A stretch of DNA of 64,000 nt from Anaerovoracaceae bacterium. GTDB taxonomy: Bacteria; Bacillota; Clostridia; Peptostreptococcales; Anaerovoracaceae. This document shows, piece by piece, positions 6,974-35,545 of the stretch. The stretch is taken from the NCBI GenBank assembly GCA_045115935.1, contig JBGULF010000035.1:9162-73161 (forward strand). Direction: 5' to 3'. The translations under genes and the position numbers were made by a program. Under the pieces are notes generated by a model that was given only the letters and a program-made list of their open reading frames with translations, ran no database searches and was not told the origin of the DNA. The stretch's first letter is position 1. Each line of letters begins with the position of its first letter.

Positions 6974-8233
6974 TCAATCCTCATCTTCAGGCTTGTCCTT
7001 GACCGCGATGCGCGTCATGAGAGCGCGCCTTGCATCGGCCTTGGTCACCTTGACGTGGAATAATTTGTGTTTTGATTCATAATCGAACTCATCGCCCACC
7101 TTAGGCAGTCTGTCGAGCTCTATCATTACCCATCCGTTGATCGTTGTGGCGTCCGCCTCGATCTCCTCGTCGAACATCTCAAAGAAGTCCTCGAGGTTGG
7201 CTCCGCCTGCCACCATGTAGACGTCATCGCCTGCCGGTCTGACATCTCTCGATGTGACGGTGTCGTGCTCATCATAGATATCGCCTACTATCTCTTCGAT
7301 GATATCCTCCAGGGTGACCAGACCGGTCGTGCCGCCGTATTCGTCGACAACGATCGCGATATGCGTCCTCTTGGCCTGCATCTTTTTGAGAAGTACGGCA
7401 GCCTTGAGAGTCTCGGCTACATAGGCCACCGGCTTTATGATCTTTTCGGTATCCTTTATTGTCTTTACGTTGTTGTTGTAAAGATCCTTCTGGTTGATTA
7501 CTCCAATGATGTCATCGAGGTCATCCTCGTACACAGGCAGTCTTGAGAGGCCGGATTCCTTGAAGACCTTTTTGATCTCCGAAACAGGCGTGCCTCTTTC
7601 GACCGCAACAATATCGACCCTCGGAGTGAGGATGTCGATAGCTTCTATGTCGTTGAATTCGATCGCATTTGCGATGAGCTCGCTCTGCTCCTCGCCTATC
7701 GCCCCGCCGGCCTCAGCCTCTTCGACTATGGTCAGCAGCTCATCCTCGCTGAACTCCGGCCCGTCCTTCTTGCCGAAGACCTTCTTGAGGAAGATCTTGA
7801 GTCCGTTGAAAATGAATGTCAGCGGCGTCAGTATGAATATGAGCGCTCTGACGAAAGGCGTCAGCGCGAGCGCGGTCTCCTCGGCGTATTCTCTTGCGAG
7901 TATCTTAGGTGAGATCTCGCCGAATACAAGTACGAGGAAAGTGACCATGACGGTGGCGATGGTCGGTCCGACCTTTGCTCCCCATGTCATGATGCCGTAC
8001 ACAGTTGCGACGGTCGTCATGGTGATGTTGGATATGGTGTTTCCGACCAGCACCGCAGTGATCAGCTTGTCGAAATCCTCGCAGAGTCTGAGCGCATATG
8101 CCGCGCGCTTGTTGTCATCAGCCGCGAGGTTCTTGAGTTTTATCTTGTTTGCCGAGCTGAACGCCGTCTCGGTAGCCGAGAAGAACGTTGAGCTCAGCGT
8201 AAGAAGTATTATTGCTATTAAATATCCGTTCAT
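6974..8233 (-). CDS. HlyC/CorC-family transporter (DUF21/CNNM + CBS pair + CorC_HlyC)
   Basis: 419 aa. N-terminal 4-TM DUF21-type region (ETAFSSANK...), a CBS pair, and a C-terminal CorC-type domain. The ATG overlaps the stop of the upstream giant gene (TAATG at 8231-8235). Confidence 0.85.
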
Positions 8234-20502: not shown

Positions 20503-20545
20503 CCAAATAAAAGAGGCTGCCACACTATTTTTGTGCGACAGCCTC
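20503..20545 (-). terminator. Rho-independent terminator after the flavoprotein gene
   Basis: Minus strand: GAGGCUGUCGCAC-AAAAAUA-GUGUGGCAGCCUC (13 bp with two G-U pairs), then UUUUAUUU, 25 nt after the stop at 20571. Confidence 0.8.
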
Positions 20546-20570: not shown

Positions 20571-21668
20571 TTATACTATCCTATTCGCATAGGTTGCGGC
20601 TTTGGCATCGATCTCAGGCACTTCGAGGATGCTCATCGGATCGTTTGCGGTCTCAACCATGGCGAATTTGCCCGGAAGTATCATCCCTTTGTTGAAATTA
20701 AGGGCACCTATTATCTGCTCAGATACGATATCGCCGCCGCTGTAGCCTGACACGACAAGCGCGTAAATTTTCTTACGGCTGAAATCGTGCGCTCTGTACA
20801 GAGCTGTCAACCTGTTGATGAAGGCTGTAAGGTTGGCGTTGAGAGCATCATTGTAATTTGGACATATCATCACCAGCGCATCAGCTTCCATCAATGCAGG
20901 ATAGACCTGCTCTGTTATTATCCCACCGTAGAAGCATCTGCCCTGTTCGCCGAAATGCAGGCAGTCCTCATATTTGCATCCCCTGCAATCCCTGATCACT
21001 CCCTCGCTTAGAGATATCTCCGTAATCTCGGCTCTGTATTCTATGTTCCTGCGCACCTTGTCCCACAGGAGCAAAGTATTGGAAGTCTTCCTTGAGCTCG
21101 CGTGGACAGCGAGCACCTTAATTCTTTCCGATCCGTTAGACACAGGCGCGCTTTCACTGCCAAAATCTCTTATCCTGTGAACGAGGTCGCGCACCTGCTG
21201 TTCGTAAACCGTTTCCAGATCAACTTTGCGAATACCGGAAAGGACGTGAAAATTCTTAAGGTCTCCGGTAGCCTCGACAAGCGGTCTGCCCGGAAAAGTG
21301 CAGCCCGAAGCATTCGCCGAGAAAGCCAGCCTTCTTGCCAGCGCCTTGGTAAAAAGCTCACTTTGCCCGTCAACCAGTATACCCCCGGACGATCCTTCGA
21401 GGCAGTCGGGATTGGACCTGAAGTACTCGAGCATCCTGTAGTACTCCATGTTGACACCGGCTTCTGTCAGGCTCACGGCAAAGAGTACATGACGGTCTCT
21501 CATACTTGTATATTGCAGCTCTGACGCTTTTTCCACCAGGGTGATATCCGTGCCTTCTCTGTCGAGCTCTTCCAGTATGTCCCCCAGAACATCTTCCATC
21601 CTTCTGTTCCAGCCCTGTATCTCGCAGAGAGGTCTCACTACTATCAATTCTCTCACAGTCCCCGTCAC
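20571..21668 (-). CDS. Two-domain flavoprotein: unassigned N-domain + NADPH-dependent FMN reductase / iron-sulfur flavoprotein-like C-domain
   Basis: 365 aa; the GTG start at 21668 is uncertain. The C-terminal half (IKVLAVHASSRKTSNT ... CRGCKYEDC ... MICPNYNDALNANLTAFINR ... VVSGYSGG) has a flavodoxin-like reductase pattern. Confidence 0.6.
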   Translation of the reverse strand: MTGTVRELIVVRPLCEIQGWNRRMEDVLGDILEELDREGTDITLVEKASELQYTSMRDRHVLFAVSLTEAGVNMEYYRMLEYFRSNPDCLEGSSGGILVDGQSELFTKALARRLAFSANASGCTFPGRPLVEATGDLKNFHVLSGIRKVDLETVYEQQVRDLVHRIRDFGSESAPVSNGSERIKVLAVHASSRKTSNTLLLWDKVRRNIEYRAEITEISLSEGVIRDCRGCKYEDCLHFGEQGRCFYGGIITEQVYPALMEADALVMICPNYNDALNANLTAFINRLTALYRAHDFSRKKIYALVVSGYSGGDIVSEQIIGALNFNKGMILPGKFAMVETANDPMSILEVPEIDAKAATYANRIV

Positions 21669-21673
21669 CCCTT

Positions 21674-22666
21674 TTAGCGTATATCACACAGCGTTGTATA
21701 AGCATTCAGGATGCGCTTGTACAGCGCGTCAGGCAGTGGCACATCCTCATACTCGAAGCCTGACTCTGTCAGTCTGTTTTTCACCCCCATAAAAGCGCCT
21801 CTGGCGCTATCCCCAAGATATACCGATCCGTAGTGCCACTCCCCGCGAAGCGTAAGCAGAATCGGAACGGCTGCGGATGATATGGCCGGAGCGATATACG
21901 GCTTGAATCCAAGCTCCCTCACTTTTAAGTTGGCGCTCGTTGCCAGCTCAGTAAGCCTCAGAGAGGCTTCCTCATCATAGTGTTCGATGCTGTTGGCTAT
22001 AACCAGGTCCTGCCCATGAGGCCCGAAAGCTCTTCCTTCAGTCTCATAAAGACTCATCGGACCTTCCGGCTCTTTGCGTGAATAGTAAAGAGCTCTCATG
22101 TTCATGACTCCGAGCCCGTATCCCTGGATCTGCCAAGGCATGAGCTCCGCCGCATCGAGAAATGCCGCCGCAAGATTATCCACAGGGTCGCTTACCACAG
22201 CTACCATCCCCTTATACTCCGCCTTGCGGGCAAGAGTTGCGTAGTGCTTTATTATCTCCCTGTTGGCATCGAGTTGAGCCATCCTGACATCCTCGACCTG
22301 CTCTGCCGAATCTACGGTCACAGGAGGGACTCCCCTGCTGGCGCAGAACACCAGCACGTCGCAGTCGAACAAAGTCTCTTCATCCAAGATCCTGATTTCC
22401 GGCAGTTTGTGAGTATCAAAAGGATAACCCACCTGGTTGATCTCGATCTCCAGACGCTCGAGGTTTTCCTGCCTTATGTCCATGATTCCGATTTCGGAAA
22501 TGACGTCGGCACCGAGCAGCCTGAGGCCTATGAGCATAGTCGTCCCTACATCTCCGAGCGCGAGTATGTTGACTCTGTTATGCCCCGCAAGTTTGACCGG
22601 GCAGCCGCCGAGTTCGATCACATTTTGTATGCCTGTATCTGCAGGCAATTCGTGCAGAAATCTCAT
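21674..22666 (-). CDS. Divergent lactate/malate dehydrogenase-family oxidoreductase
   Basis: Start trimmed to ATG 22666 (AAGGGAGAA RBS). Rossmann VNILALGDVGTT. The FGPHGQD loop corresponds to the LDH/MDH GEHGD catalytic-His loop. The stop lies 5 nt before the next gene. Confidence 0.6.
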   Translation of the reverse strand: MRFLHELPADTGIQNVIELGGCPVKLAGHNRVNILALGDVGTTMLIGLRLLGADVISEIGIMDIRQENLERLEIEINQVGYPFDTHKLPEIRILDEETLFDCDVLVFCASRGVPPVTVDSAEQVEDVRMAQLDANREIIKHYATLARKAEYKGMVAVVSDPVDNLAAAFLDAAELMPWQIQGYGLGVMNMRALYYSRKEPEGPMSLYETEGRAFGPHGQDLVIANSIEHYDEEASLRLTELATSANLKVRELGFKPYIAPAISSAAVPILLTLRGEWHYGSVYLGDSARGAFMGVKNRLTESGFEYEDVPLPDALYKRILNAYTTLCDIR

Positions 22667-22771
22667 TCCATTTCTCCCTTTTGTTGCTGTTGTTAATGCA
22701 TGCATAGGTTAGAATTTTACTATACCGTATGAATTTGGCCGGTTTATGATCGTATGTATCCGGCCGCTTAA

Positions 22772-25700
22772 TTACTGCTGCTGCTTATGCCTGAACATGA
22801 ACAGCCTCTTCAGCCTTCGCAGTTCATTATCGACATAAACCGAAGGCACGATATGGTCATCATAGTCAAGCCCCTGCCCGAGAAGCGGCATACGCGGATT
22901 AGTAATGACCGCGCCCAACCTCCTCAGTGTGAGCTTTTTCTCGAATGTCTTCTGATACTCCTCTTCGATGACACGAAGTATCGACAAAGCGTTCTCAAGG
23001 CATGTCAGGGAATACCTGTATATGCTGTCGGGATCTCCTCCGCCTACAAAACTGAATCCGGTATACGGAAGTATCAAGTTGACAGAAGCTCCCTCACCCT
23101 CCTCCGACCCGATATCCCCTGACTCGGGCGAAGTATCAGGACTATCTATGCTGTCGCCTCCGATAAAAGGATAGCAGTCTCGCTCGTTCATCCACATGCT
23201 GATCGATGGCAGGAAATACGCGCTTTCTATATCCCTTCCCATCATCTTCATCCTATCGCGCGCTTTGCCCGTAAGAAGTCCGACGATGACCTTGTGGACT
23301 TCTACTTCGTTCTGCCTCAGCACGGATTCTACTTTGCTCATGCGCTGGCCAGAGTGCAACAGGTCGTCTATAAGAATCACCGGACGGGCAAAAGACCTTA
23401 TCGTCCCCGCCTGTTCATCGAGCGTCAGATAATCTCTGGATTCTCTGACATCAAAGCCGTGAAGGTCGTTGCGGAAATACTTCTCAGTGCGTAAAGCCTT
23501 GGTGACTGTGTTAGGAACGACCACGTCAGAAAGGGCTTTGCCGAAAGGCACCGCTATGTAAGGGCCTCTCTTCTTCATCGGATCCGGTTTAACGGATACG
23601 CCATTGGTAGCCGCGACCAGATCGACTATCTTGCTGTATACGGCACTCGTATTAAATGAAAGCAGCAATTTGCCCGGATAGATGCTGCGAAGCACAGCCA
23701 GAAGGTTCTCATGTGCTTTGTCGAAAGCTTTCTGGACCCGTTGGTTCTTGTTGAGCGGAGCCTTGATCACTGTATCGGCATCCCTGAACAGTGCTATAGG
23801 GTTACGCATGTCGACCGCGTATACCGGTTTGTCAGGGTCGGAGGATATGTTGATGAATCCCTGCCTGACCACTGTCGAAATGGCTAACGGATCAACAGCT
23901 GTAACGTCCGCCGGATAGAAAACAGCATACGAATAATCCTTAGCTATGAGTGATGTCAAAAGCTCCGTGAGCAGTATCTGCCTCAGATAAGAGACATTCT
24001 CCCCTCCTGCCACGTAAAAGGCGCCTATGACCGCTATCTCGCCGCCCGCGTTGCTCCGGATGTACGAAGCGATGTCTATATCCCCGAACACATCCATGAG
24101 TTCACTGGTCCTCACGCGTTTTGCCCCTGCGGAGGCTGAAAGTCTGCCGCCAGCTGTCTCAATAGTGACACGCCTTATGTCGGGCCTCGATAGGAATTCA
24201 GCAGTCTGGCTGAGTTCTTCGCTTCTGCTTCCAAATTCTTTCAGGAAGTACTCCATCTCCGCATGCTCGCCTGGCTCGTATGTATGGATATTCAGCTCCC
24301 TCGCCTGCACTTCGTGCTTGTACGCCGGCTCGCGGACATAGAGGCTTTTGCCGTAGATGTAGTTCTGAGCCGAGAGATCTATGAGGTCAGAGATATCGCG
24401 CCCCAAATCGACATTCTCACGAATCTTTGTGGAGCTTATGTCCTCATAGAACTTGTCGAGCGTCAGATTTATCACTTTGCCCGTCACAGGATAAGCAGTG
24501 CCTTCGGCTTCGAGCCTGCGGGCCTCTCTGGCAAAGACAATATGGTTGAATGTGTGTATCGAATTTTCCTCCGGTTCCCGTCTGTATGCCGACGCGTTGA
24601 GCACGACATCGGAACCCACGGCTACATACAGCTCACGATCAGGGAAAAGACTCCTGAGATACCCGAGATCGCGCGGATTCGCTATGTTGACAGGGATGTC
24701 ATCCGGGAAGATGTACAGCCCCTCTTCGTCCGCGATGGACATCTGCAGGATGTTTCTCCTCAGCATGTGAGGTATTGTTTTCTTGGACCATGAGAATTCA
24801 TCGATGGCAAGAAAGACATCGAATCCCATGTCCCTTATGGTCGTCGCGATCGCTTTGTGTCCAAGACTGAACGGGTCGAATGTCCCTGGGAAGAATACTG
24901 CCGGTTTGTCCGGTGCAAAATCAGGGGATCCCTTCTCAGCCCTGTACTCTGTTATGTATCTATATATGTGATTGAGCGAGGCCGCGTTGTTGTAGAAGTC
25001 GATCACGCTTGAAGCCGAAGCATCAGGCATGATGGTGAGGATGCGCTTGAAGCAGTGCGAAGCGATGTTTCTCTTCTCATCGAGTGTCAGCACAGAACTA
25101 CCGAAAATGTGTACTCCGAGTGCGCGTATAGCTTCTCTGGCCACCGTCTCTCTACCGGAAGCGGCTCCCTTCATAATTAGTCCGAGTATCCGGTTCCTTC
25201 TTGTGATATCTGTTCTGTACGAGACGAAATGGGTGTAATTCTCAAGCGCGATGGCGAGGGTATCCAACGCCGCTTCCGCTGCTCTTTCAGTGCCTGAATC
25301 GATCATTTTTCCCATCTCATATATGACTTCGTCGAGTTCCTCCGGATCAAGATACAAGAGTACTATACCCAGATAATCCGGAATCAGTCCTGAGAACTGG
25401 TAGTCGTTCCTCTCAAGCCCGTTGAACAGCTCAAGCATCAGCTCGTTCCGCTTATCCATCGTCATTCTTCCCGCGATATCCAGGAGTGCCCTTCCGGCTT
25501 CCTTCCTGACAGTGACTGTTTCGCTGACCTTGATCAGGTTGGAAAAATGCGTCGCAATCTGCATCAGCCTGCTCTGATCCGCTTTCTCAAGAGCGTTCTG
25601 CTTCATCACCTTAATGTTTGCCATCTTGGTGTTCCAGGTGACATGAAGCTTGAGGTTGTCGAGAAACATTGCAGACATTTGCTCATCCGTAATAATTCCC

Positions 25701-27610
25701 TCCGAAAGATCAAGGATCTTCCTTACCCGCCTGTCGTATTCGTCGCTTGGAATCAAACCGTGATGCTCGAGGACTTCAAGCGCGATAAGATCCACACTTT
25801 TGCTGACTTTTCCTGACACATTTCGGGCAAAATCGTATATACTCTTTCGAAAGCTTGCCGTGCAGATACCAGCATCGGTCACGAGGGCCGTATTCATAAG
25901 TACGATGATTTTTTCCTCGGTTGCGGCGTCATTCATTTTGCTCCCGGCCAGATAGTATTTAGGCATATAGTAGTTTTCCAGGATGTCAAAATATCTGGGT
26001 ATGCATGAAGTCCTGCAGTTACCGGTAACGGCGCGCACGAAAAAATCCGTGCTTGCCGTGATCCACTTCCGGTGAGCCTCTGTATACTTGCGGTCAGGAT
26101 CCAGCATGAGCGCCAGGTATTCCCTGAAAAGTGAAATATTCGTGATGTTATCGTCAGGCGCCGGAATGTCCCCCGGCAGCTCTTTCTTGTACTCTTCGCG
26201 GTATTTCGATACGATATACCCCATCGTGTCTGCGGTCTGCTCGCGAATATCGCTTTCCGGATGCGCCAGATTATCGTACAGATATCTGAGAGCCAGAGCC
26301 TTCTGGCTGTCTGTCATGTAGGTCGAATACTCTCTGAGAATAGTTATGTATGTGCGTACATTCTTCCAGTCAGTCTCGCTCCGGGCAGCCTCTACCAGAC
26401 CTGAGAATAGCTGCTCACTGCCAAACCTGTGCATGACACGTATGTTGTGATCTATCGCCCGGTATTTTATCTGCTCAGTGACGCTGCTCCTGTCGAGCAG
26501 TACGTACTCTCTCCTCACAGGTACCACCGGCTCGGTGCATTCACGAGGATAGCTGTCAGCACAGTCTGCGATATCTGTATGGACTCCGTGTTCGATCATA
26601 TAATCCTCAAAGTCCTTCAGCTTGTTGTATACTCGTGCATATCTGAGCCTTTTTGCTTCATCGACATTGTCCAGCTTGCTGAGAATGACATCAAAAGCTT
26701 CGCGCAGGCTGTAGAAGTGTATTATCTCCCTGCCATTTTTCCTGGTGCTCTTAGTTCTGAAATCCGAGTAGATGAGCAAAAGCGACTCCACGGACAGATC
26801 TTCGAGTTCAAGATCCCATGTCGAATGGTTGGCTGCGATATGCGCAGTCTGTTTCAGCCCGCAGCGCCCGAGACAGTAATCTGTATAGTAATAATGAAGA
26901 TACGGAACACGCCTCTCTTCGTGTTTACGGCATCCGTACTTTCCGATATCGTGCGAAGCCGCCGCAGCGGATATCAGCGCGAGGTCGACCGTGACACCGG
27001 CCTTATATAGTTGCCGGGCTGCGTACATCGCTACATAGTGAACCCCGCTGATGTGCCCAAGAGTGTTGAATGGAGTGATCTCCGCGCCTATGCGCATGAA
27101 TTCATAAATGTAATTCTCTCTGACGAGAGCTTTCATCTTTATGTATTCATTTATAAAACTTTTTTCTCTTATCTCTTCATCGCTGAGCAGTAATATGTCG
27201 AGTATAGGATCAAATTCACAGCATTTACGCTCGTATTCATATACCGCGCGCATAAATTTGAGCAAACTGAGTCTGCCGGCCTCAAACTTTTCCGAATCCT
27301 CAGGAGCCGGAATATGTGGGAAAAGCCTGTTTCTCAGATAATCATATGTATGCGCAAGCCAGCCTCCTTCAGGCTCATCTTCAGCTTCCTTTCCGAAAAC
27401 CTTCGCCGCCGCAGTACTCCAGATCTCGACTATGTCACCCGAATTGATCCTTCCGCGGCTGTCCGCCCGCATCAGAAGATCAGAGGCGGCCTTGCTTATG
27501 ACAAGAGCGGCCTTCTCGACATCATCTCTGCTCAATCCGTTAAAGTTGAGCCGGTTTCCGTCGGAATATGATTTGATGAGTTCGTCTCTTAATATCTCAT
27601 GAGCGGTCAT
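22772..27610 (-). CDS. About 1610-aa multidomain protein: HD phosphohydrolase + long helical region + NadD-like nucleotidyltransferase + unassigned domain + type-I PRTase-like domain
   Basis: ATG 27610 (GGGAGGAG RBS). HD motifs: GHISGVH ... AASHDIGK ... ANHSTW ... IYSDFR. Nucleotidyltransferase motifs: FFPGTFDPFSLGH (HxGH) and ISSTKIR. PRPP-loop-like motif: PVILIDDLLHSGQRM. Confidence 0.75.
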   Translation of the reverse strand: MTAHEILRDELIKSYSDGNRLNFNGLSRDDVEKAALVISKAASDLLMRADSRGRINSGDIVEIWSTAAAKVFGKEAEDEPEGGWLAHTYDYLRNRLFPHIPAPEDSEKFEAGRLSLLKFMRAVYEYERKCCEFDPILDILLLSDEEIREKSFINEYIKMKALVRENYIYEFMRIGAEITPFNTLGHISGVHYVAMYAARQLYKAGVTVDLALISAAAASHDIGKYGCRKHEERRVPYLHYYYTDYCLGRCGLKQTAHIAANHSTWDLELEDLSVESLLLIYSDFRTKSTRKNGREIIHFYSLREAFDVILSKLDNVDEAKRLRYARVYNKLKDFEDYMIEHGVHTDIADCADSYPRECTEPVVPVRREYVLLDRSSVTEQIKYRAIDHNIRVMHRFGSEQLFSGLVEAARSETDWKNVRTYITILREYSTYMTDSQKALALRYLYDNLAHPESDIREQTADTMGYIVSKYREEYKKELPGDIPAPDDNITNISLFREYLALMLDPDRKYTEAHRKWITASTDFFVRAVTGNCRTSCIPRYFDILENYYMPKYYLAGSKMNDAATEEKIIVLMNTALVTDAGICTASFRKSIYDFARNVSGKVSKSVDLIALEVLEHHGLIPSDEYDRRVRKILDLSEGIITDEQMSAMFLDNLKLHVTWNTKMANIKVMKQNALEKADQSRLMQIATHFSNLIKVSETVTVRKEAGRALLDIAGRMTMDKRNELMLELFNGLERNDYQFSGLIPDYLGIVLLYLDPEELDEVIYEMGKMIDSGTERAAEAALDTLAIALENYTHFVSYRTDITRRNRILGLIMKGAASGRETVAREAIRALGVHIFGSSVLTLDEKRNIASHCFKRILTIMPDASASSVIDFYNNAASLNHIYRYITEYRAEKGSPDFAPDKPAVFFPGTFDPFSLGHKAIATTIRDMGFDVFLAIDEFSWSKKTIPHMLRRNILQMSIADEEGLYIFPDDIPVNIANPRDLGYLRSLFPDRELYVAVGSDVVLNASAYRREPEENSIHTFNHIVFAREARRLEAEGTAYPVTGKVINLTLDKFYEDISSTKIRENVDLGRDISDLIDLSAQNYIYGKSLYVREPAYKHEVQARELNIHTYEPGEHAEMEYFLKEFGSRSEELSQTAEFLSRPDIRRVTIETAGGRLSASAGAKRVRTSELMDVFGDIDIASYIRSNAGGEIAVIGAFYVAGGENVSYLRQILLTELLTSLIAKDYSYAVFYPADVTAVDPLAISTVVRQGFINISSDPDKPVYAVDMRNPIALFRDADTVIKAPLNKNQRVQKAFDKAHENLLAVLRSIYPGKLLLSFNTSAVYSKIVDLVAATNGVSVKPDPMKKRGPYIAVPFGKALSDVVVPNTVTKALRTEKYFRNDLHGFDVRESRDYLTLDEQAGTIRSFARPVILIDDLLHSGQRMSKVESVLRQNEVEVHKVIVGLLTGKARDRMKMMGRDIESAYFLPSISMWMNERDCYPFIGGDSIDSPDTSPESGDIGSEEGEGASVNLILPYTGFSFVGGGDPDSIYRYSLTCLENALSILRVIEEEYQKTFEKKLTLRRLGAVITNPRMPLLGQGLDYDDHIVPSVYVDNELRRLKRLFMFRHKQQQ

Positions 27611-27718
27611 CAGTATATCTCCTCCCAATGCACCCTATGTTCAAAATCCCTTATCAGCATTGATCGCTCCTCTGCCACAGCAGCTTATATCGCCTCAGAT
27701 ATCTCTGCCTCATTTCAG

Positions 27719-28933
27719 CTATAAGTCAATTACCGCGGTCTCTCCTGATACCTCTTCGATCAGCGGCTTTATCTTATTCAAATAACGCAAAACTACAGCC
27801 GCATGCATCCCGCCAAGTTTTATAGCCACATCATCATCCGGCAGAAAAGCGCTGCTGTGGAGAGGTTCTTCGCACCCCGCTCCTATATGATAGAAAGTTC
27901 CTGGCGCCTCATTGAGAAAACACCCGAAGTCCTCCGTTGTCATCGTCGGTCCATCGATTCTGCACACGCCTTCATCTCCGAAAAGGTCGGCCGCAGCTTT
28001 TTCAGCCAATGCTGTCATTTCGTCGTTGTTCACGATGCCCGGATGGCTGTGATTATATTCAATTACTACTGTTGTCCCTGTTTTTCCGGCGATTTCACGG
28101 ACAGTTCTGTGAAAAGCTTCCTCCATCGCGGCTCGGGTCTCCGATCCGAGAGTCCGAATTATCCCCTCGAGCTCCGCGAAGCCGGGCATTATGTTTTCTG
28201 CCGTTCCCGAGTTCATTTTGCCTACAGTCAAAACGCATTTGTCGTCTGTGATCTGTCCCGGCAGAGCGAGAAGCGCCGTGACCATTTCAACGGCTGCCGC
28301 CAACGCGTCAATCCCTTTTTCCCGTACAGCTCCGTGAGATGCCCTGCCGTTTACGACGATCCTGAACGTATCAGAAGCGGCGTAGAACTTTCCGTACATG
28401 ACCCCGATCTTCCCTGAGGGAAGATCAGGCGTTACATGCGCGCCGAAGACAGCATCTGCGCCTTCCAGGCAACCTTCTTTTATCATTCTGGCTGCTCCGC
28501 CTCTTCCCTCTTCATCAGGCTCGAACAGGAAAACTACATTTCCCTCGAGTTCATCCCTGTATGCTGAAAGTATCCTTGCCGCCCCGAGCAAAGCTGCTGT
28601 ATGCACATCATGACCGCAGGCGTGCATTTTGCCCGCATAAACAGATGCAAAATCAGCTCCTGTGATCTCAGTCAGAGGCAAAGCGTCCATGTCAGCCCTG
28701 AGAGCAACCGTCCTTCCGCCTGTTTTCCCGCGCAAAGTACCGATCACCGCAGTGCCGAGCACTCTCTTTGTTGTTATATCCAAACTATTCAGATAGCTCT
28801 CAATCAGGTCTGCAGTCCTGAATTCGTTGTTACCGAGCTCGGGATGGCTGTGGATGTCTTCCCTCAGTCGCCTGATTTCATCTGAACTCTCCGTCAGTTC
28901 GTTCCTGATCGTTTCGCAATTAATGGTTTTCAT
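27719..28933 (-). CDS. M20D-family amidohydrolase, by context probable N-acetyl-LL-diaminopimelate deacetylase
   Basis: 404 aa. LHSHPELGNNEF, RADMDALP and HACGHDVH metal-ligand motifs. It is the last gene of the dapF-dapH-aminotransferase cluster. Confidence 0.7.
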   Translation of the reverse strand: MKTINCETIRNELTESSDEIRRLREDIHSHPELGNNEFRTADLIESYLNSLDITTKRVLGTAVIGTLRGKTGGRTVALRADMDALPLTEITGADFASVYAGKMHACGHDVHTAALLGAARILSAYRDELEGNVVFLFEPDEEGRGGAARMIKEGCLEGADAVFGAHVTPDLPSGKIGVMYGKFYAASDTFRIVVNGRASHGAVREKGIDALAAAVEMVTALLALPGQITDDKCVLTVGKMNSGTAENIMPGFAELEGIIRTLGSETRAAMEEAFHRTVREIAGKTGTTVVIEYNHSHPGIVNNDEMTALAEKAAADLFGDEGVCRIDGPTMTTEDFGCFLNEAPGTFYHIGAGCEEPLHSSAFLPDDDVAIKLGGMHAAVVLRYLNKIKPLIEEVSGETAVIDL

Positions 28934-29090
28934 TCGTACATATTGCGCTAGCTGTTGTATAGCACTTACTGTATAGTCACCGGAATATATCCTCCGCTCG
29001 AGTCCTCGCTGCTCTTTCTGTCTACTCGGGTGAGCAGATCACTGCACCTTTGTAGTCATGAAATTGACCAGTTCCTGCGGGAAAATGCAC

Positions 29091-30233
29091 CTACAGGCTG
29101 CTCAGGAATTGTTCCAGCCTGTCCATTCCTTCACTGATCGCTTTCATGCTGCAGCAGTAAGATATCCTCACATGTCTGTCGGAGCCGAAAGCTGCTCCCG
29201 GCGTCACCGCGACTCCTGCCTCATCTAGGAGGTGCCGTGCGAATGTCATCGAATCCATTCTGTACTTGGATATGTCCGGAAAAGCATAAAAAGCTCCCTC
29301 CGGAACCGTCAGCTCCATGCCAGCATCCCTTAGGCGGGAAATCAGATAGTCCCTGCGCGCTTTGTATTCAGTCAACATATATGACGGGTCCGTCTCCAGT
29401 GCGGCCATACATGCCTTCTGGAACATCGCCGGAGTTGATACTATATCGAACTGGTGCACGAGTTCGAGTCTTTCTTTCACGGAATGATCCGCCATAAGAT
29501 AGCCCATACGCCATCCTGTCATCGCGTAGGGTTTGGAAAAGCTCTGAACGACCAGTATCTGCTCTTTCAGGTCGCGGTTTTCCGCAAAGCTGTGATAATC
29601 ATCCGTATAGCAAAGCGCCTTATAGACGTCGTCACATATAACGAATATATCCCGGCCTTTCACCGCTTTATAAACGGCACTCAGGCTTTCCTCTCCGTAC
29701 ACGCACCCTGTCGGATTGTTCGGTGAATTCAGGATCACCGCTTTCGTCCTGTCGGTTATCAGTGATTCGAGCTTATCCCCTTTTATCTGAAACCCATCCG
29801 AAGAGGTGTCCATATGCACCGGAACTCCTCTAGCGAGGCGAACTATTTCCTCATAGAGTACAAATGCCGGGATAGGTATAATGACCTCGTCCCCCGGGTT
29901 CAGGATCCCGAGAAGTGAGACAAAAAGGGCTTCAGTAGCACCGGCTGTTAGTATGATCTCATCAGCCTCATAATCAAGCCCGTTCTTATTCTTCTCGAAT
30001 TGCGCTACTCTGCCGAGGAGTTCTCGAGATCCGTTATTTTCTATGTAATGTGTGTCACCTGAGAAAACTGATTCAAGCGCTGCCTTGCAGATCGGCTCAG
30101 GAGTGGCAAAATCAGGCTCTCCGAGAGTAAGCCTTACGCAGTCTTTCCTTGCAGCAGCCATCGCGGAAAACTCCCTGATAGCGCTCCTCCTCAAACTGTA
30201 AACTGCTTCATTCAAGTGGTCTCTCATTGCCAT
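29091..30233 (-). CDS. Class I/II PLP aminotransferase, by context N-acetyl-LL-diaminopimelate aminotransferase-like
   Basis: 380 aa. NSPNNPTG and SFSKPYAMTGWRMGY (PLP-Lys) motifs. Lies between dapH and the M20 deacetylase. Confidence 0.7.
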   Translation of the reverse strand: MAMRDHLNEAVYSLRRSAIREFSAMAAARKDCVRLTLGEPDFATPEPICKAALESVFSGDTHYIENNGSRELLGRVAQFEKNKNGLDYEADEIILTAGATEALFVSLLGILNPGDEVIIPIPAFVLYEEIVRLARGVPVHMDTSSDGFQIKGDKLESLITDRTKAVILNSPNNPTGCVYGEESLSAVYKAVKGRDIFVICDDVYKALCYTDDYHSFAENRDLKEQILVVQSFSKPYAMTGWRMGYLMADHSVKERLELVHQFDIVSTPAMFQKACMAALETDPSYMLTEYKARRDYLISRLRDAGMELTVPEGAFYAFPDISKYRMDSMTFARHLLDEAGVAVTPGAAFGSDRHVRISYCCSMKAISEGMDRLEQFLSSL

Positions 30234-30248
30234 AGGTTCACCTTTATC

Positions 30249-30941
30249 TCACAGCTTTCTGAGGTCCTGCTCAAGCGCAGTCTTCGTTGACGTCTGTTCA
30301 TCCTTTTCCTTGATGATCCTCGCAGGACAACCGGCAACTACCATATTAGCGGATACATCCTGCGTAACTACTGCGCCGGCCGCCACAACAGCTCCCTTAC
30401 CGATGCGTATGCCTTCGATAATAACTGCATTAGCGCCTACAAGCACATCATCTTCCACAATCACAGGAATAGCTGATGCCGGCTCCACTACTCCTGCCAG
30501 TACAGCTCCCGCCCCGATATGGCAGTTACTCCCGACCTCGGCACGGCCACCTACTACAGCGCCCATGTCTATCATTGTCCCGTCGCCGATAACGGCACCG
30601 ATATTGATTACAGCGCCCATCATAATAACCGCGTTCTCTCCGATCTCTACCTGTTCCCGTATGAACGCGCCCGGCTCTATCCTGGCGTTGAGATTCTTGG
30701 TGTCGAGCAGATGGAGAGCACTGTTTCTGCAGTCATTTTCAATTACGATATCTTCTATCCTGTCAGAATTCGCCTTTACTATTCCGCAAAGCTCTTTCCA
30801 ATCACCGAAAACGATCTTGTCTCCCGCTCCGAAGACTCTGGCGCTTCCGTAATCGACCGGTTCTTTTTCCTTGACGAACATCCTGACAGGCGTTTTCTTC
30901 TCAGCATTGCCGATATACCGTATTATCTCCTGAGCGTCCAT
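30249..30941 (-). CDS. dapH: 2,3,4,5-tetrahydropyridine-2,6-dicarboxylate N-acetyltransferase
   Basis: 230 aa. N-terminal DapH domain (TPVRMFVK...) followed by hexapeptide left-handed beta-helix repeats ([26 protein letters not shown]...). Confidence 0.88.
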
Positions 30942-31063
30942 AACACTTCTCCCCCGGTTCAGTTTTTTAATTCTAAGTGATACTCTTCATTCGCCATCAT
31001 AAGGAATCTCTCCTTCAGACAATCTTTACGAAAACCCCATCCTTGAATGACAAAATGATAAAA

Positions 31064-31936
31064 CTATACCCCTATATATCCGGTAAAAACGTCTTCAGCC
31101 GGGCCGGTCATGAAACATTTACCTGTCGCCCGATCGTATCTGATCAGAAGATCTCCGCCCGCGAGATGTACAAGCACTTCATCATCGATTTTGTCCGCCA
31201 TGATTCCCGCAAATACCGAGGCAGCAGCGCCTGTACCGCATGCCAGAGTCTCTCCTGAACCTCTTTCCCATACGCGAAAGAATATTTCTCCTCGGCTGCT
31301 GATGCTTATGAATTCGGAGTTTACTCCATCAGGAAATCTTTCCCGGGCAAGTATGTCTCCAATCTTCTTTATGTCGATAAATTGCAAAAGTGATCTCTCA
31401 TATGAGGCGGCAATCAGGTCGTTGCTATCGCAGAAGGTATCTCCAAGCTGAGGATTATCCTCCAAAAAGAAAACTGCATGAGGATTACCTATGTCGACTG
31501 CTGTGAAAATAAGTTCTGCGCCGCATAAATTCAAGGACTCAGGGCCTACGCTTACCAGCTTCGGCTTTCCCATGTCGACAGTAACAGAAGTGACGCATCC
31601 ATCCTCAACATCAAAGCTGACCTCTCTCAAACCGGCTTTCGTGTCAATGACCGCATGTCTTCTGTCTTCAGGAATGATGCCGTTATCATATATGTACTTG
31701 GCGACACATCTGATACCATTGCCGCACATGCTTCCTTCCGATCCATCCAGATTGAACATATGCATATATGCATCAGCGCGAGCTGACGGCTCGATGAGTA
31801 TAAGCCCATCTCCGCCTATTCCATAGTGCCTGTCTGACAGTCTGACAGCGAGTGAAGACGGATCATCTACCTGTTCTTCAAAACAGTTGATGTAAATGTA
31901 GTCATTTCCGCAACCCTGCATTTTGGTAAATCTCAT
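31064..31936 (-). CDS. dapF: Diaminopimelate epimerase
   Basis: Start trimmed to ATG 31936 (MRFTKMQGCGNDYIYI). Paired catalytic-Cys motifs SMCGNG and ACGTGA. Confidence 0.92.
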   Translation of the reverse strand: MRFTKMQGCGNDYIYINCFEEQVDDPSSLAVRLSDRHYGIGGDGLILIEPSARADAYMHMFNLDGSEGSMCGNGIRCVAKYIYDNGIIPEDRRHAVIDTKAGLREVSFDVEDGCVTSVTVDMGKPKLVSVGPESLNLCGAELIFTAVDIGNPHAVFFLEDNPQLGDTFCDSNDLIAASYERSLLQFIDIKKIGDILARERFPDGVNSEFISISSRGEIFFRVWERGSGETLACGTGAAASVFAGIMADKIDDEVLVHLAGGDLLIRYDRATGKCFMTGPAEDVFTGYIGV

Positions 31937-31967
31937 GTCAGTTCCCCGTTTTGATCTGTGATCCACC

Positions 31968-33050
31968 TTAGATCTTTACGATCCAGTCTCCCATAATGTC
32001 AGGAAGTTTACCGATCTGCATACCGTAAAGCGTATCATAAAGCTTCTGGCTTACATCTCCGACTACTTCGTTGTTGATTACGTGGTCAACGCCCTTGTAG
32101 TTCAGAACTCCAATAGGCGAAATAACACAAGCTGTTCCTGTTGCCCATGCTTCCTTGAGGGTTCCGTTCTGAATCGCCTCGAAAATCTCATCGAGCTCGA
32201 TACGGCGTTCCTCCACTTCATATCCCCACTTACGGAGCAGCTTTATTACACTGTCTCTAGTGACACCCGGGAGGATAGAACCTGTAAGCATAGGAGTAAC
32301 GATCTTATCTCCAATCTTGAAGAAAGCGTTTGAAGTTCCTACCTCTTCAACATAGCGACGCTCTTTCGCGTCCAGCCAGAGGACTTCCTCACAGCCGAAC
32401 TCATGAGCCTTATAGGAGGCGATCATGCCGCATGCGTAGTTGCCTGCGCACTTCGCGAAACCGGTACCTCCGATAGCAGCTCTGATATACTCCTCTTCCA
32501 CTAGGATACGGCTGCCGTGCAATTTGCTCTCATTGCCCTCATAGTAAGCGCCAACAGCACAAAGGATGATGATGAACCAGTACTTCTTGGCAGGCAGTAC
32601 CGAGAAGCTGACCTCCGGCGAGATGATAAATGGACGTATATAAAGTGATGTTCCCGGATCGGTCGGTGTCCAGTCCTCATCGACTTTGACGATAGCCTTA
32701 ACTGCAGCGAGGAAGAGATCCTAATCCATTGGAGGGATGCACATTCTCTCGTTGGTGCGGTTAAGACGCTTTGCGTTCATATCCGGGCGGAACAGATTGA
32801 GCCCGCCTTCTGGATTTCGGTAAGCCTTGAGACCCTCAAACATCATCTGTCCGTAATGCAGAGTTGTCGAACCCGGATCCATGCAGATCGGTCCGTATGG
32901 GATGATGCGTCCGTCGTGCCAGCCCTTTCCTTCGTCATAGTCCATGATAAGCATATGATCGGTAAAGTATTTTCCGAATCCAAGCGACTTGCAGTCAGTC
33001 GGCTTTGGTTTTGGATTAGTGTTTCTTGTTACCGGAAATGTGTATTCCAT
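31968..33050 (-). pseudogene. ilvE: Branched-chain amino acid aminotransferase interrupted by one in-frame TAG (codon 110)
   Basis: Track ORFs 32721..33050 and 31968..32522 share one frame. The 198 nt between them translate without a stop as DLFLAAVKAIVKVDEDWTPTDPGTSLYIRPFIISPEVSFSVLPAKKYWFIIILCAVGAYYEGNESK. The only defect is TAG at 32723-32721. The GGTGFAKCAGNYA PLP-Lys motif is intact. Confidence 0.85.
32721..32723 (-). other. In-frame amber codon inside ilvE
   Basis: ...ATG TGC ATC CCT CCA ATG GAT TAG GAT CTC TTC CTC GCT GCA..., one substitution away from GAG, CAG or AAG. Confidence 0.9.
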
Positions 33051-33415: not shown

Positions 33416-35545
33416 TCACTTGTCGCTGTTTATCCTGTAGATCCGCAGGCCGTCATACTTCTTTATCAGCTTGAGCATGCTCATCATAGGTTTCCAGTCC
33501 TTGCCCTGCTCATCAGGCGGCAGCTGATCATAATGCGCTTTGATCTCTTCTGCTGAAGGATCCCCGTCCATGGTCAGCTTGTGCCTTCTGGTCTGTTCCC
33601 TGAGCGCTGCGCGGACCTGTGATTCTGAAAAGTCTTTTGCGAGTCCGAATTTTTCAGGATGTGTGACATCGAGATCCTTGTCTTCATACTCAATCCCGTA
33701 GCTCCAGCTCATGGATATATGCTCCCTCACCCATCTGTCGTGCTCCATCGGCGCTATCAGGTCGAGTTCTTCCTGGGTGAACGAGGTGAGCATGTCGAAA
33801 TCGACAGGCTTGTCCGTATAGAAGCAGCCTATCTTGTTCAGATACAGATCGAAGTTCCTGGCCTGACGTATATTGGACAGTTTGTACTCGAGCGACATCA
33901 CATCGAATTCCGTCTCCAGCTGCTCTGTCTTGACCGTCTCCTCTTCGCCCTGATGTCTGTATCTTCCGTTGAGGGATACTGCAAAATCATACAGGTGCAG
34001 GAAGTTGCTGTCAGAGAGATATATGTGCTTGCTCTTTCTGTTGGCCCGCCTTACATCCGGGACGGCATTCAGAGGCATTATCGATGTATCGACTATGTGC
34101 CTTATTTCGGTGAGGAATATCTTCTCCTTTTCATTCATGTCGCTGTAGGCCTTGAGTCTTGGGGCTTTGCCTGCCTTTTTCTTTCCGGCTTTCTTTTTCA
34201 GTCTGACCCAGGCATCATATTTTTCTCTGAAGTCATCGATCTTAGGTGATTCTTCGGCGTCATAGTAGTAGACCGCGTTTATCTTTCCATCACTGAAGTC
34301 GAAGTCCGCGGCCATCGGATGCAGCTCGGTCCTCGAATTGCGCCCGTAAGCCGTTCTGTCCCAGCACTGCAGTTCATCGCAGATCATGAGCATGTAAGCC
34401 AGCGGATGGAGCCTTGCCTTGAGAGCCGGTTTTCTGTCCGGATCCTTATAGAAGGCGATCGCGAACTTGAACAGACTGTTATGCAGCATTATCGCGGACA
34501 GAACATCGATGTGAGCACTTGTTATGCTGTCGATCCCGCGCTGGCTGCCGATGGTTTCGAGCAGTTCCCTGCAGAGTCTGGCTGAGCTGAAATAAGCGTG
34601 ATCCATGAAGTAGCCGTTTTCATTCGGCTCTACCGGCTTGCTCCTGAGCTTGCCTAGCATATACTGTTCATGAAAACCGTATGCATCTCCGAGCTTTTTT
34701 GTAATATCGTAAGCCAGAAGCTCATCGGTGCTTCTAAAGTCCTTATGATATATATCTTTGAACCTCGCCCTTGCCTTTTCATTGAGATTCGTCAGCGAGT
34801 AGATATCATGAAATGCCAGGTATATCGTCCCCTTGCCTCTTTCCTTCTTGTCCACTTCGAAATATGACATGACCTGTTCGAATGGTATCTCGAACGGATA
34901 TCCTATGTCGTGGAAGAGCGATGTGAGTCCCCAGTACTCCAGGAAGAAGTTCGCGGTCTTAGCCGACTTTCTCTCCTCTGATTCCCCGCGTTTAAACCCG
35001 ATCAGGTCCTTGTAGAAGCGGCGGAATACCCTGCGGTATTTCTCATTGTTTTCGTAGATCGCGAGACCCAGAGCAAAGACATATACCGAATGGGAGTAAT
35101 GATCCCTGTGCTTCATCAGGAGCGAGCTCGCGTTTGACTCAAATTCCGAAAGGAGTTCAATCATGTTCTGCGAAGCTCCGTATCTGCCTATGAACATCTC
35201 TAGGAAACAGTAATACACGGTGTATGCATCTTCGGCAGTGCCCGAGTCGATGAAATTGCCCAGTTCTCTCTCGAGGCACAGGCGGTCAATATCCATCTGC
35301 ATATTGTACGGGATCTGTCCGGAAGAGGTGCTTCTGCCGGTGCACTGAGCACCAAAGAACTCCGCTTCAGCCTTCTCGTCAAATCTCAGCCCCTCACATC
35401 TTTCGTGAAGGAACCTGAGCGCAGAAGATTTGAGGTCATTGCGGTGTCCGACGGTGTAATACAGAGGCGGCTCCTTCGGTCCGAGATCCTTGCCGAATCG
35501 CTCTTTATTAACTTCCCTCATTGTCTTAAATGCTGTATACGCCAT
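33416..35545 (-). CDS. HD-domain phosphohydrolase fused to a C-terminal RyR domain (709 aa)
   Basis: ATG 35545 with an AGGGGGAA RBS. HD motifs: HRDHYSHSVYV ... LFHDIGYPFE ... MLHNSL ... ICDELQ. The C-terminus APMEHDRWVREHISMSWSYG ... LPPDEQGKDWKPMMSMLKLIKKYDGLRIYRI matches the RyR-domain pattern (H..W......GW.YG ... eK..D...v..ip..L...G..i.r). Confidence 0.7.
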   Translation of the reverse strand: MAYTAFKTMREVNKERFGKDLGPKEPPLYYTVGHRNDLKSSALRFLHERCEGLRFDEKAEAEFFGAQCTGRSTSSGQIPYNMQMDIDRLCLERELGNFIDSGTAEDAYTVYYCFLEMFIGRYGASQNMIELLSEFESNASSLLMKHRDHYSHSVYVFALGLAIYENNEKYRRVFRRFYKDLIGFKRGESEERKSAKTANFFLEYWGLTSLFHDIGYPFEIPFEQVMSYFEVDKKERGKGTIYLAFHDIYSLTNLNEKARARFKDIYHKDFRSTDELLAYDITKKLGDAYGFHEQYMLGKLRSKPVEPNENGYFMDHAYFSSARLCRELLETIGSQRGIDSITSAHIDVLSAIMLHNSLFKFAIAFYKDPDRKPALKARLHPLAYMLMICDELQCWDRTAYGRNSRTELHPMAADFDFSDGKINAVYYYDAEESPKIDDFREKYDAWVRLKKKAGKKKAGKAPRLKAYSDMNEKEKIFLTEIRHIVDTSIMPLNAVPDVRRANRKSKHIYLSDSNFLHLYDFAVSLNGRYRHQGEEETVKTEQLETEFDVMSLEYKLSNIRQARNFDLYLNKIGCFYTDKPVDFDMLTSFTQEELDLIAPMEHDRWVREHISMSWSYGIEYEDKDLDVTHPEKFGLAKDFSESQVRAALREQTRRHKLTMDGDPSAEEIKAHYDQLPPDEQGKDWKPMMSMLKLIKKYDGLRIYRINSDK

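Follow-up and report, generated by a model that had tools for sequence, protein, structure and literature searches.

A conserved three-gene module of Bacillota built around a 1612-residue protein with HD, HEAT/ARM-like, NadD-fold, GNAT-like and phosphoribosyltransferase-like parts

The three-gene unit and the architecture of its large protein

The unit described here, which lies on the minus strand of a 64,000-nucleotide stretch of DNA (the window) from an Anaerovoracaceae bacterium, is composed of three consecutive open reading frames (ORFs) spanning positions 20571-27628: a large gene whose product joins an HD phosphohydrolase, a NadD-like nucleotidyltransferase (NT) and a phosphoribosyltransferase (PRT)-like domain, a gene of the lactate/malate dehydrogenase (LDH/MDH) superfamily and a flavoprotein gene. 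The fusion, which had been proposed in an initial annotation of the sequence, is real, and the three domains named are its most conserved ones. These are known folds in a combination without described counterpart, new at the level of the architecture and of the operon, and no curated model, defence catalogue or publication describing either was found; the well-annotated family of known function that the initial annotation had allowed for is thus not what we find. A contig of a metagenome-assembled genome of a rumen Anaerovoracaceae (L005) matches the window with 100% identity. The elements of the unit are the following:

27619..27626, minus strand: ribosome-binding site GGGAGGAG, read from the sequence
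22772..27610, minus strand: gene for the 1612-aa multidomain protein, stop codon included (ORF, translation and the 100%-identical database protein P0001)
21674..22705, minus strand: LDH/MDH-superfamily dehydrogenase gene, 343 aa (Pfam Ldh_1_N, PDB sequence matches, orthologue conservation)
20571..21668, minus strand: two-part flavoprotein gene, 365 aa (Pfam FMN_red, orthologue conservation)
20503..20545, minus strand: intrinsic terminator closing the three-gene unit (13-bp stem with 8 GC pairs, then TTTTATTT)

Counted from a TTG codon, the large ORF runs from 22772 to 27628 on the minus strand. The ATG at 27610 is an alternative and likelier start, because the ribosome-binding site lies 8 nt upstream of it and because P0001, of 1612 residues, begins there; the residue numbering used below is that of this 1612-aa protein and the gene span that of 22772-27610. 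The length agrees with the value of about 1610 residues first given for the fusion, and all the motifs quoted for it are in their places. The flavoprotein ORF starts 5 nt past the stop codon of the LDH-like gene, as had been reported, and the strong terminator placed at 20545-20503 was found as a GC-rich hairpin (20545-20513) followed by a T tract. The LDH-like gene, which had been placed about 100 nt downstream of the large one, is 66 nt away when counted from its first ATG, and only if M14 is the true start does the distance come to about 105 nt.

Two AlphaFold2 models, built from a 48-sequence family alignment, and domain-wise Pfam and NCBIfam scans of per-domain alignments of 39 diverse family members were used to divide the large protein. 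The model of residues 1-900 has a predicted local distance difference test score (pLDDT) of 89 and a predicted template modelling score (pTM) of 0.88; that of residues 880-1612 has a pLDDT of 83 and a pTM of 0.82, and in it the NT, GNAT-like and PRT-like domains form one compact unit. The order of the parts from the N-terminus, with the mean pairwise identity of each among 39 genomes as the measure of constraint, is shown below:

27131..27610, minus strand: N-terminal helical region, aa 1-160 (nothing but helices in the AlphaFold2 model; poorly conserved, 26% identity)
26576..27130, minus strand: HD phosphohydrolase domain, aa 161-345 (profile matches, invariant metal ligands; 63% identity)
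24932..26494, minus strand: HEAT/ARM-like alpha-solenoid, aa 373-893 (pLDDT 89, all helical hairpins, Foldseek; 40% identity)
24311..24931, minus strand: NadD-fold NT domain, aa 894-1100 (Pfam, TIGR00482, PDB sequence matches, Foldseek; 60% identity)
24857-24886, minus strand: first NT motif GTFDPFSLGH, aa 909-918
24419-24439, minus strand: C-terminal NT motif ISSTKIR, aa 1058-1064
23636..24310, minus strand: GNAT-like fold, aa 1101-1325 (Foldseek; lacks the Q/RxxGxG/A coenzyme A (CoA) loop; 33% identity)
23171..23635, minus strand: PRT-like domain, aa 1326-1480 (sub-threshold profile match, weak Foldseek matches, invariant residues; 53% identity), with PFGK at aa 1355-1358 and PNTVTK at aa 1366-1371
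23339-23380, minus strand: phosphoribosyl pyrophosphate (PRPP)-type loop VILIDDLLHSGQRM of the PRT-like domain, aa 1411-1424
22775..23170, minus strand: C-terminal extension, aa 1481-1612, with an invariant GGD (1484-1486) and long helices (AlphaFold2, conservation; 46% identity)

The HD, NT and PRT-like domains are therefore the most constrained parts, and their motif residues, which the initial annotation had considered might prove degenerate, are retained in this clade. About 85% of the large protein is invisible to Pfam, which recognizes CTP_transf_like (E 5.5e-10) and a sub-threshold HD in the window protein and nothing else, and the family members are loosely labelled in the databases as NadD (nicotinate-nucleotide adenylyltransferase), phosphohydrolase or hypothetical. 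A fusion of the large protein to its partners was considered for the members longer than 1700 aa and rejected, their extra length consisting of low-complexity insertions only.

Conserved domains and partner proteins

The HD motifs noticed initially at about aa 185-300 were confirmed: the metal ligands H186, H220-D221, H239, H262 and D283 are invariant or nearly so in 39-48 members. The Pfam HD match of the window protein is weak (E 0.015, under the Pfam cut-off), the same model being matched in 34 of the 39 diverse members with a best E of 3e-5. At E<=1, the NCBIfam models matched by the 39 HD regions include the DVU_1551-type HD in all of them, which corresponds to the HD half of the DVU_1551 NTP-transferase family, TIGR00295 in 27 and HDIG in 25; no YqeK-named model occurs among the 16 families matched, and PRK07152, a model of the NadD-YqeK fusion, is matched through its NadD half only. 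The region that follows, first described as some 550 residues of helical sequence, is indeed helical, and its identity is corrected here to that of a HEAT/ARM solenoid of about 520 residues. The top Foldseek matches of the N-terminal model in the PDB are importins, PP2A-A, SF3B1 and a designed ARM protein (E 4e-5 to 6e-4), and the best 50 listed are HEAT/ARM solenoids only, with no HD-fold match among them.

The invariant residues of the NT domain are G909, D912-P913-F914, H918-K919, DEFSWSK (937-943), G999/D1001, Y1009 and D1057/S1059/S1060/I1063/R1064. Of the complete NadD-type signature read earlier, ISSTKIR, H918 (invariant in the 48 family members) and the NadD fold stand, whereas HxGH does not, since its first His is replaced by Ser to give SxGH; the counterpart of this motif in phosphopantetheine adenylyltransferase (PPAT) is TxGH. 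TIGR00482 (NadD) is matched at E 1.5e-10 with 41.4 bits for a cut-off of 112.45, and all the other NadD models likewise remain far under their cut-offs. Sequence and profile searches of the PDB returned NadD (8aih, 2h29), nicotinamide mononucleotide adenylyltransferase (NMNAT) and PPAT only, and the comparison of the C-terminal model with the PDB by Foldseek returned at least 40 NadD chains (E 6e-8 to 1e-5, target TM 0.67-0.75, about 200 residues; TM 0.72-0.75 at E 6e-8). Aligned to Enterococcus faecium NadD (8aih), the domain shows a deletion of PPH(V) or its replacement by the invariant DEFSWSKK, and has ANPRD (ANPxD) opposite SYTYDT. PPHK, after strand 2, and SYTxDT are the motifs by which NadD binds nicotinate mononucleotide (NaMN). 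By the curated thresholds, the NT domain is not NadD.

These results bear on an explanation by ordinary NAD biosynthesis, in which the NT domain would be the NaMN or nicotinamide mononucleotide (NMN) adenylyltransferase of the cell and the other domains would be salvage or proofreading add-ons, comparable to those of NadD-YqeK, NadR and NadM-Nudix. NadD is the best match in both sequence and fold, the databases name members of the family nicotinate-nucleotide adenylyltransferase, and no other NT-fold gene occurs within the 64-kb window; a canonical nadD was likewise absent from the window and from every locus retrieved. Nevertheless, we consider this explanation improbable, weakened as it is by the score of 41 bits against 112 and by the change of PPHK to DEFSWSKK and of SYTxDT to ANPxD, and by these motif and score data alone. 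Other points stand on the same side: the PRTs of the NAD pathway are of type II and not of type I, the catalytic His or the ISST motif is missing in related clades, a loss incompatible with an essential NadD, and some genomes carry the large gene without its partners. The link to the NadD-YqeK pair drawn in the initial annotation is likewise reduced to an analogy, given the same scores and missing motifs of the NT domain and the DVU_1551-type nature of the HD domain.

The domain of about 200 residues that had been left unassigned after the NT domain is resolved by Foldseek as a GNAT-like fold, whose matches in the PDB are the acyl-CoA-binding regulatory domain of Mycobacterium tuberculosis ICL2 (9obo, 2e-5), TmcA (2e-5) and GCN5 (3e-5); against the viral predicted structures of BFVD, the C-terminal model returned NMNATs and more than 25 viral GNATs. 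Pfam GNAT models give a weak match in 3 of the 39 members only. The consensus at the position of GNAT motif A, xxIxNxxQIxLTE, is devoid of the Gly pair, and few residues of the domain are invariant, so that it looks like an adaptor or a ligand-binding module.

The adjacency of the NT and GNAT folds raises the question of a CoA-type or acyl-adenylate chemistry. The NT domain would then act like PPAT or the ligase domain of CitC, the GNAT-like fold would accommodate the thiol of a pantetheine, the PRT-like domain would attach a phosphoribosyl group, for which the 2'-(5''-phosphoribosyl)-3'-dephospho-CoA prosthetic group is a precedent, and the LDH-like protein would supply a 2-hydroxy acid. Indeed, PGTFDPFSLGH is as close to the TxGH of PPAT as to the HxGH of NadD, PPAT sequences are matched weakly, and the two folds are adjacent as in CitC, in reverse order. 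Furthermore, coaBC (Flavoprotein and DFP domains) lies directly upstream of the large gene and is co-directional with it in four loci, all of the Mogibacterium clade (L001 6663-7874, L008, L014 4568-5770 and L079), coaD is found two genes upstream in L085, and a gene resembling a 2-hydroxyacyl-CoA-dehydratase activator follows the operon in L088. On the other hand, NadD models score far above PPAT models, no CitC model is matched, the GNAT-like fold is weakly conserved and lacks the CoA pyrophosphate loop, the CoA-gene neighbours are limited to single clades, and no acyl carrier protein or lyase genes appeared nearby in the census of flanking ORFs. We therefore give this chemistry a low probability.

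The PRT-like domain was assigned from several signals. The Pfam Pribosyltran model (PF00156) reaches 15.5 bits for a gathering threshold of 26.3, and its weak matches, present in 30 of the 39 members with a best E of 2e-4, cover profile positions ~79-130 only; the NCBIfam HGPRT and APRT models match at E~0.06, and Foldseek finds weak BFVD matches with a PRT-domain protein (E 6.6e-3) and a UMP synthase (E 9.8e-3). Among the best 50 PDB matches listed for the C-terminal model there is no PRT, all of them being NadD and GNAT chains. The PRPP loop of type I PRTs is formed by four hydrophobic residues, an acidic pair and xx(S/T)GxT. In VILIDDLLHSGQRM, the hydrophobic run, D1415-D1416 and G1421 are conserved, and the final Thr is replaced by the invariant R1423. 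The sequence claimed initially as a type I PRT-like loop lies at 1411-1424 and is conserved, its assignment being qualified by the sub-threshold profile and weak fold matches and by SGxR in the place of TGxT. Outside the loop, P1355/G1357/K1358, P1366-NTVT-K1371 and G1484-G1485-D1486 are invariant, as is D1416 within it, and F1356, D1415, H1419 and G1421 are nearly so. By the curated thresholds, the protein is not a canonical PRT. An extension by eye of the alignment with Escherichia coli Hpt to the pyrophosphate (PPi) loop, flexible loop and C-terminal motif of HGPRT is not claimed, hhalign covering the PRPP loop only.

Both partner proteins correspond to the families announced for them. The LDH-like protein matches Ldh_1_N with 29 bits for a Pfam cut-off of 27, its PDB sequence matches are L-2-hydroxyisocaproate dehydrogenase (the best, E 4e-3), MDH and LDH (E 4e-3 to 0.1), and it remains far under the family cut-offs (32.5 bits against 303.55 for L-LDH and 26 against 283 for MDH). 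The catalytic dyad and substrate arginines of LDH are H195, D168, R109 and R171. Among 68 orthologues of the LDH-like protein, LGDVG, R141, R204 and H230 (GPHG) are invariant, and D76, the acidic residue after strand 2, is conserved in at least 90%; N202, also conserved in at least 90%, occupies the position of the dyad Asp of LDH, the equivalences being drawn by eye from the motifs, and the protein has a longer active-site loop. Judged from these residues and matches, the second gene is a very divergent, NAD-type member of the LDH/MDH superfamily. The flavoprotein contains an FMN_red domain at aa 183-341 (E 5.8e-20, 71.8 bits for a cut-off of 24), which keeps the FMN loop, preceded by a poorly conserved N-terminal part of about 180 residues; no NCBIfam model matches it. 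To this two-domain organization is added the motif C228-x2-C231-x4-C236-x-H238-x6-C245 (nt 20934-20987), invariant in 66 orthologues, whose four Cys suggest an Fe-S centre.

Distribution and sister clades

Full-length relatives of the large protein, with 37-75% identity, are present in at least 464 species-representative genomes across the Bacillota. The carriers belong to the Anaerovoracaceae, Mogibacterium, Megasphaera, Colibacter, Acidaminococcaceae, Oscillospiraceae, Lachnospiraceae, Anaerotignum, Peptococcaceae, Sedimentibacter and Tissierellia, to which is added one Spirochaetes metagenome-assembled genome; cultured carriers are found in Megasphaera, Mogibacterium, Anaerotignum, Anaerovorax, Sedimentibacter and Clostridium fessum. 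The identity to the window protein is highest in the Anaerovoracaceae and Mogibacterium and lower in more distant Bacillota. The linkage to the two partner genes, whose conservation the initial annotation had left to be checked, is strong, and the operon-like unit is kept throughout anaerobic Bacillota: in tblastn searches of 84 loci, the LDH-like gene and then the flavoprotein gene lie directly downstream in nearly every locus with enough DNA, the exceptions being L014 (M. diversum, where neither gene is found downstream), L061, L065 and L082. In an all-versus-all census of the flanking ORFs, the recurrent genes are the large one (83 loci), the LDH-like one (72 loci) and the flavoprotein gene (66 loci); the next commonest neighbour is a divergently transcribed 455-aa gene (11 loci), which from its sequence looks like gdhA.

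The three proteins have no PADLOC match at E<=0.01, relatives are absent from the IMG/VR viral contigs, and neither the window nor nine related loci gave any Rfam match, riboswitches included. Because the partner linkage is conserved and no other recurrent neighbour, riboswitch, PADLOC match or viral match accompanies it, the unit is an autonomous chromosomal three-gene module. The same data were confronted with the hypothesis of an anti-phage defence or conflict system making or degrading a nucleotide signal. Large multidomain proteins with HD, NT, GNAT and PRT folds are common in conflict systems, which speaks for it. This hypothesis was rejected on the PADLOC and viral-contig negatives and appears very improbable, the more so as the neighbourhoods are of the housekeeping type and vary by lineage, the window unit lying between lysine/diaminopimelate (DAP) genes and tRNA-Arg/gpsA.

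The GNAT-like and PRT-like part (aa 1101-1612) was used for an exhaustive HMMER search, which yielded 362 clusters at 50% identity. Because essentially all of them have the same architecture or are fragments of it, this core is, as far as sequence searches reach, a closed family without stand-alone annotated relatives. From full-length sequences starting with Met, three sister types were defined. Type (i) proteins (1075-1310 aa; P0234, P0187, P0209) have no HD domain, keep intact NT motifs and are followed by the orthologous LDH-like and FMN_red genes with overlapping stop and start codons (L085 8001-13124, L088 7001-12855, L089 731-6250), the HD-less proteins of these three loci measuring 1075-1266 aa. 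A 161-aa gene upstream of such HD-less versions was considered as a split-off N-terminal domain and proved to encode an unrelated coiled-coil protein. In L088, a BcrAD_BadFG-DUF2229 activase-like gene pair is located after the operon.

Type (ii) proteins (1065-1290 aa; P0251, P0218, P0200) are also HD-less, have no redox partners and have lost the ISST motif, the GH of their first motif often being KD or RD. Just upstream of them, adjacent or overlapping, is encoded a PPDK_N (ATP-grasp) protein of 850-860 aa, in which the PPDK_N domain is central and the N- and C-terminal parts are without assignment; the two genes thus placed make up a paralogous module. Type (iii) proteins possess the HD domain, with GQK for GHK and neither the ISST motif nor redox partners; a convergent gene for an APH-family kinase of about 310 aa is their constant downstream neighbour, and purH-purD lies upstream in two of the three loci, purD being directly adjacent in L093. 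The loci of these two types are:

L086/L087 5426-11198; L090 866-7275; L091 699-6937: type (ii)
L092 5001-10882; L093 3629-10800; L094 6001-11776: type (iii)

The PRT loop, as DDxx(H/D/N)xGxR, can be recognised in the great majority of members, whatever their type. Because HD-less and degenerate-NT clades exist, HD and NT catalysis are each predicted to be dispensable in some lineages. Among the loci inspected, redox partners occur only beside intact-NT proteins, some intact-NT loci being without them (L014, L061, L065, L082; P0218), and the degenerate-NT proteins adjoin ATP-dependent phosphotransferases (PPDK_N for P0251 and P0200, or an APH-type kinase). This partner swap fits an ATP-dependent activation step supplied in different ways.

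The swap bears equally on a regulatory explanation, in which the large protein would be a writer/eraser or a sensor: the solenoid would bind partner proteins, the NT domain would adenylylate them or a prosthetic group, the HD domain would remove the mark, and the PRT-like and GNAT-like folds would sense PRPP, nucleotides or acyl-CoA. Sensing by such folds has precedents in PurR and PyrR for the PRT fold and in the GNAT-like domain of M. tuberculosis ICL2. The logic would resemble that of GlnD, with its NT, HD and sensor parts, or of Rel/SpoT. A HEAT/ARM solenoid of about 520 residues is a typical protein-binding scaffold, the best structural match of the GNAT-like fold is the acyl-CoA-sensing domain of ICL2, and this fold has no catalytic signature. 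Furthermore, the sister clades retain the scaffold and the PRT loop and exchange the partners (LDH-like protein and flavoprotein, PPDK_N or APH kinase), as if the partner were the target, and the NT or HD domain is dispensable in some of them. However, the PRT-like domain keeps an FGK resembling a PPi loop, the PNTVTK loop and GGD, which is more than a pure sensor needs, and the HD, NT and PRT-like domains are all highly constrained in this clade. No HIGH-motif enzyme of the NadD/PPAT fold is known to modify proteins, and protein AMPylators use other folds. On balance, a regulatory role seems to us rather unlikely.

Proposed mechanism and genes around the unit

The mechanism that we propose, and hold as a tentative possibility, is that of a multi-enzyme of nucleotide-cofactor or dinucleotide metabolism, in which the PRT-like, NT and HD domains would act in sequence together with the redox partners. 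The PRT-like domain would use PRPP and a base or an acid to form a ribonucleoside 5'-monophosphate. The NadD-fold domain would transfer AMP from ATP onto the 5'-phosphate of this product, thereby generating an NAD-like 5'-5' dinucleotide, and the HD domain would cleave a pyrophosphate or a phosphoester for turnover or proofreading, as YqeK does for NadD. The HD domain would be accessory, because HD-less versions of the operon exist. The solenoid would dock the LDH-like protein and the putative Fe-S flavoprotein, whose redox substrate would be the base, the product or a 2-hydroxy-acid precursor, and the GNAT-like fold would be a structural or ligand-binding adaptor rather than an acetyltransferase.

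The product of a PRT, a ribonucleoside 5'-monophosphate, is the acceptor class of the NadD and NMNAT enzymes. The succession PRT, NT and HD is favoured because of this correspondence, because the PRT-like and NT domains lie in a compact block and because of the YqeK precedent, and the route from base to mononucleotide to dinucleotide is what we infer from it. The order of the operon is kept, HD-less relatives included, and the partners keep catalytic or cofactor residues, which also speaks for a multi-enzyme. It is documented that NadD can be fused to, or clustered with, an HD pyrophosphatase acting on diadenosine tetraphosphate and on analogues of nicotinate adenine dinucleotide (PMC9426524).

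Several observations weigh against the proposed multi-enzyme. The NT domain is far under the NadD cut-offs and has neither PPHK nor SYTxDT. The PRT assignment is under threshold, the phosphate-binding TGxT being replaced by SGxR, and the hhalign comparison of the PRT sub-alignment with E. coli Hpt aligns 26 columns only, those of the PRPP loop, with a probability of 3%. In the census of flanking ORFs, no conserved link to NAD, purine or CoA genes exists around the main clade, and the HEAT scaffold and the partner sets varying by clade would also fit a regulatory protein. Finally, the substitution of a kinase for the NT domain is imperfect, since P0218, which is PPDK_N-linked, retains the xxGH motif. 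A bolder version, which we regard as unlikely, is that the operon makes, trims and redox-tailors an undescribed NAD-like cofactor or signalling dinucleotide built on some base or 2-hydroxy-acid-derived moiety and employed by many anaerobic Firmicutes of gut and rumen; the wider HEAT-NT-GNAT-PRT superfamily would be a modular platform to which the NT domain, a PPDK_N ATP-grasp partner or an APH-type kinase would contribute the ATP-activation step. The rest of the probability belongs to explanations beyond those weighed here.

Among known systems, the large protein would work most like the fused nucleotide-cofactor enzymes NadD-YqeK, NadR and NadM-Nudix, and it is placed outside these families because the cut-offs failed, the substrate motifs are missing, no YqeK model is matched, the PRT loop is altered and there is no CoA loop. 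With NadD-YqeK of Firmicutes and mycoplasmas it shares, in one polypeptide, a NadD-fold HIGH-type adenylyltransferase with ISSTxIR and an HD phosphohydrolase, so that the pairing of a synthetic activity with a hydrolytic one is plausible by analogy. In contrast to that protein of about 360 aa, the one described here has 1612 aa, an N-terminal HD domain of the DVU_1551 type, a solenoid of about 520 residues between HD and NT domains, an NT domain far under the NadD cut-offs and without the NaMN motifs, additional GNAT-like and PRT-like domains and two redox partner genes. NadR (HTH-NMNAT-RNK), NadM-Nudix and the phage pair NadV and NatV similarly have an NMNAT/NadD-fold domain fused to, or clustered with, the enzyme of the preceding or following step, and the order of PRT then adenylyltransferase proposed here mirrors that of NadV/PncB then NadM/NadD. 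These salvage enzymes differ by their type II PRT, as opposed to a type-I-like one with SGxR, and by Nudix, kinase and helix-turn-helix (HTH) domains that are not found here; the window and related loci showed neither an NAD-regulon context nor a riboswitch.

The architecture of CitC, the citrate lyase ligase, is that of a GNAT-like domain and a cytidylyltransferase-like domain. The large protein resembles it by a GNAT-like fold beside a HIGH-type NT fold in one chain, and differs by the reversed domain order, the lack of a Citrate_ly_lig match, the weak conservation of the GNAT-like fold and the absence of citrate lyase genes nearby. GlnD and Rel/SpoT also unite a nucleotidyl-transferring domain, an HD hydrolase and small-molecule-binding folds in one large protein. 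However, GlnD uses a pol-beta-type NT and ACT sensors, where a NadD-fold NT and PRT-like and GNAT-like candidate sensors are found here, and (p)ppGpp is made by Rel/SpoT with a different synthetase fold. As for the third gene, it shares with Isf and the NADPH-dependent FMN reductases a flavodoxin-like FMN_red domain with a compact four-Cys motif, and differs by its additional, poorly conserved N-terminal domain of about 180 aa and by the spacing CX2CX4CX8C, which departs from the Isf motif.

The family is large and well conserved in bacteria that are important to gut and rumen fermentation, and metabolic reconstructions that follow the NadD label of the databases would be misled about NAD synthesis. 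Should the three conserved domains work one after another, the operon would encode a branch of nucleotide-cofactor metabolism that has so far escaped recognition; should the large protein be a regulator instead, no writer/eraser of the NadD fold would precede it.

Directly upstream of the large gene and on the same strand, a compact run of lysine/DAP genes occupies positions 27719-31966 (minus strand) and comprises dapF, dapH, an aminotransferase and a peptidase of the M20 deacylase type. The gap of 108 nt that separates this run from the large gene contains no terminator-like site, and the neighbourhood is not kept in other genomes. Downstream of the unit, tRNA-Arg(CCG) and gpsA are carried by the opposite strand.

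Further genes of the window, all on the minus strand, may be mentioned. Pfam recognizes no domain at E<=1e-4 in an ORF of 709 aa (33416-35545), whose sole match, to the RyR domain, is faint. An ORF of 2128 aa (8233-14619), located just upstream of a CNNM/CorC transporter gene and of secA, shows only an N-terminal DUF285 match and low-complexity repeat matches and probably encodes a large repeat or surface protein. Finally, an ORF of 184 aa (31968-32522) adjoins dapF. Its match to Aminotran_4 is confined to the C-terminal half of the profile (positions 118-220), and it may be what truncation or a frameshift has left of a class IV aminotransferase.

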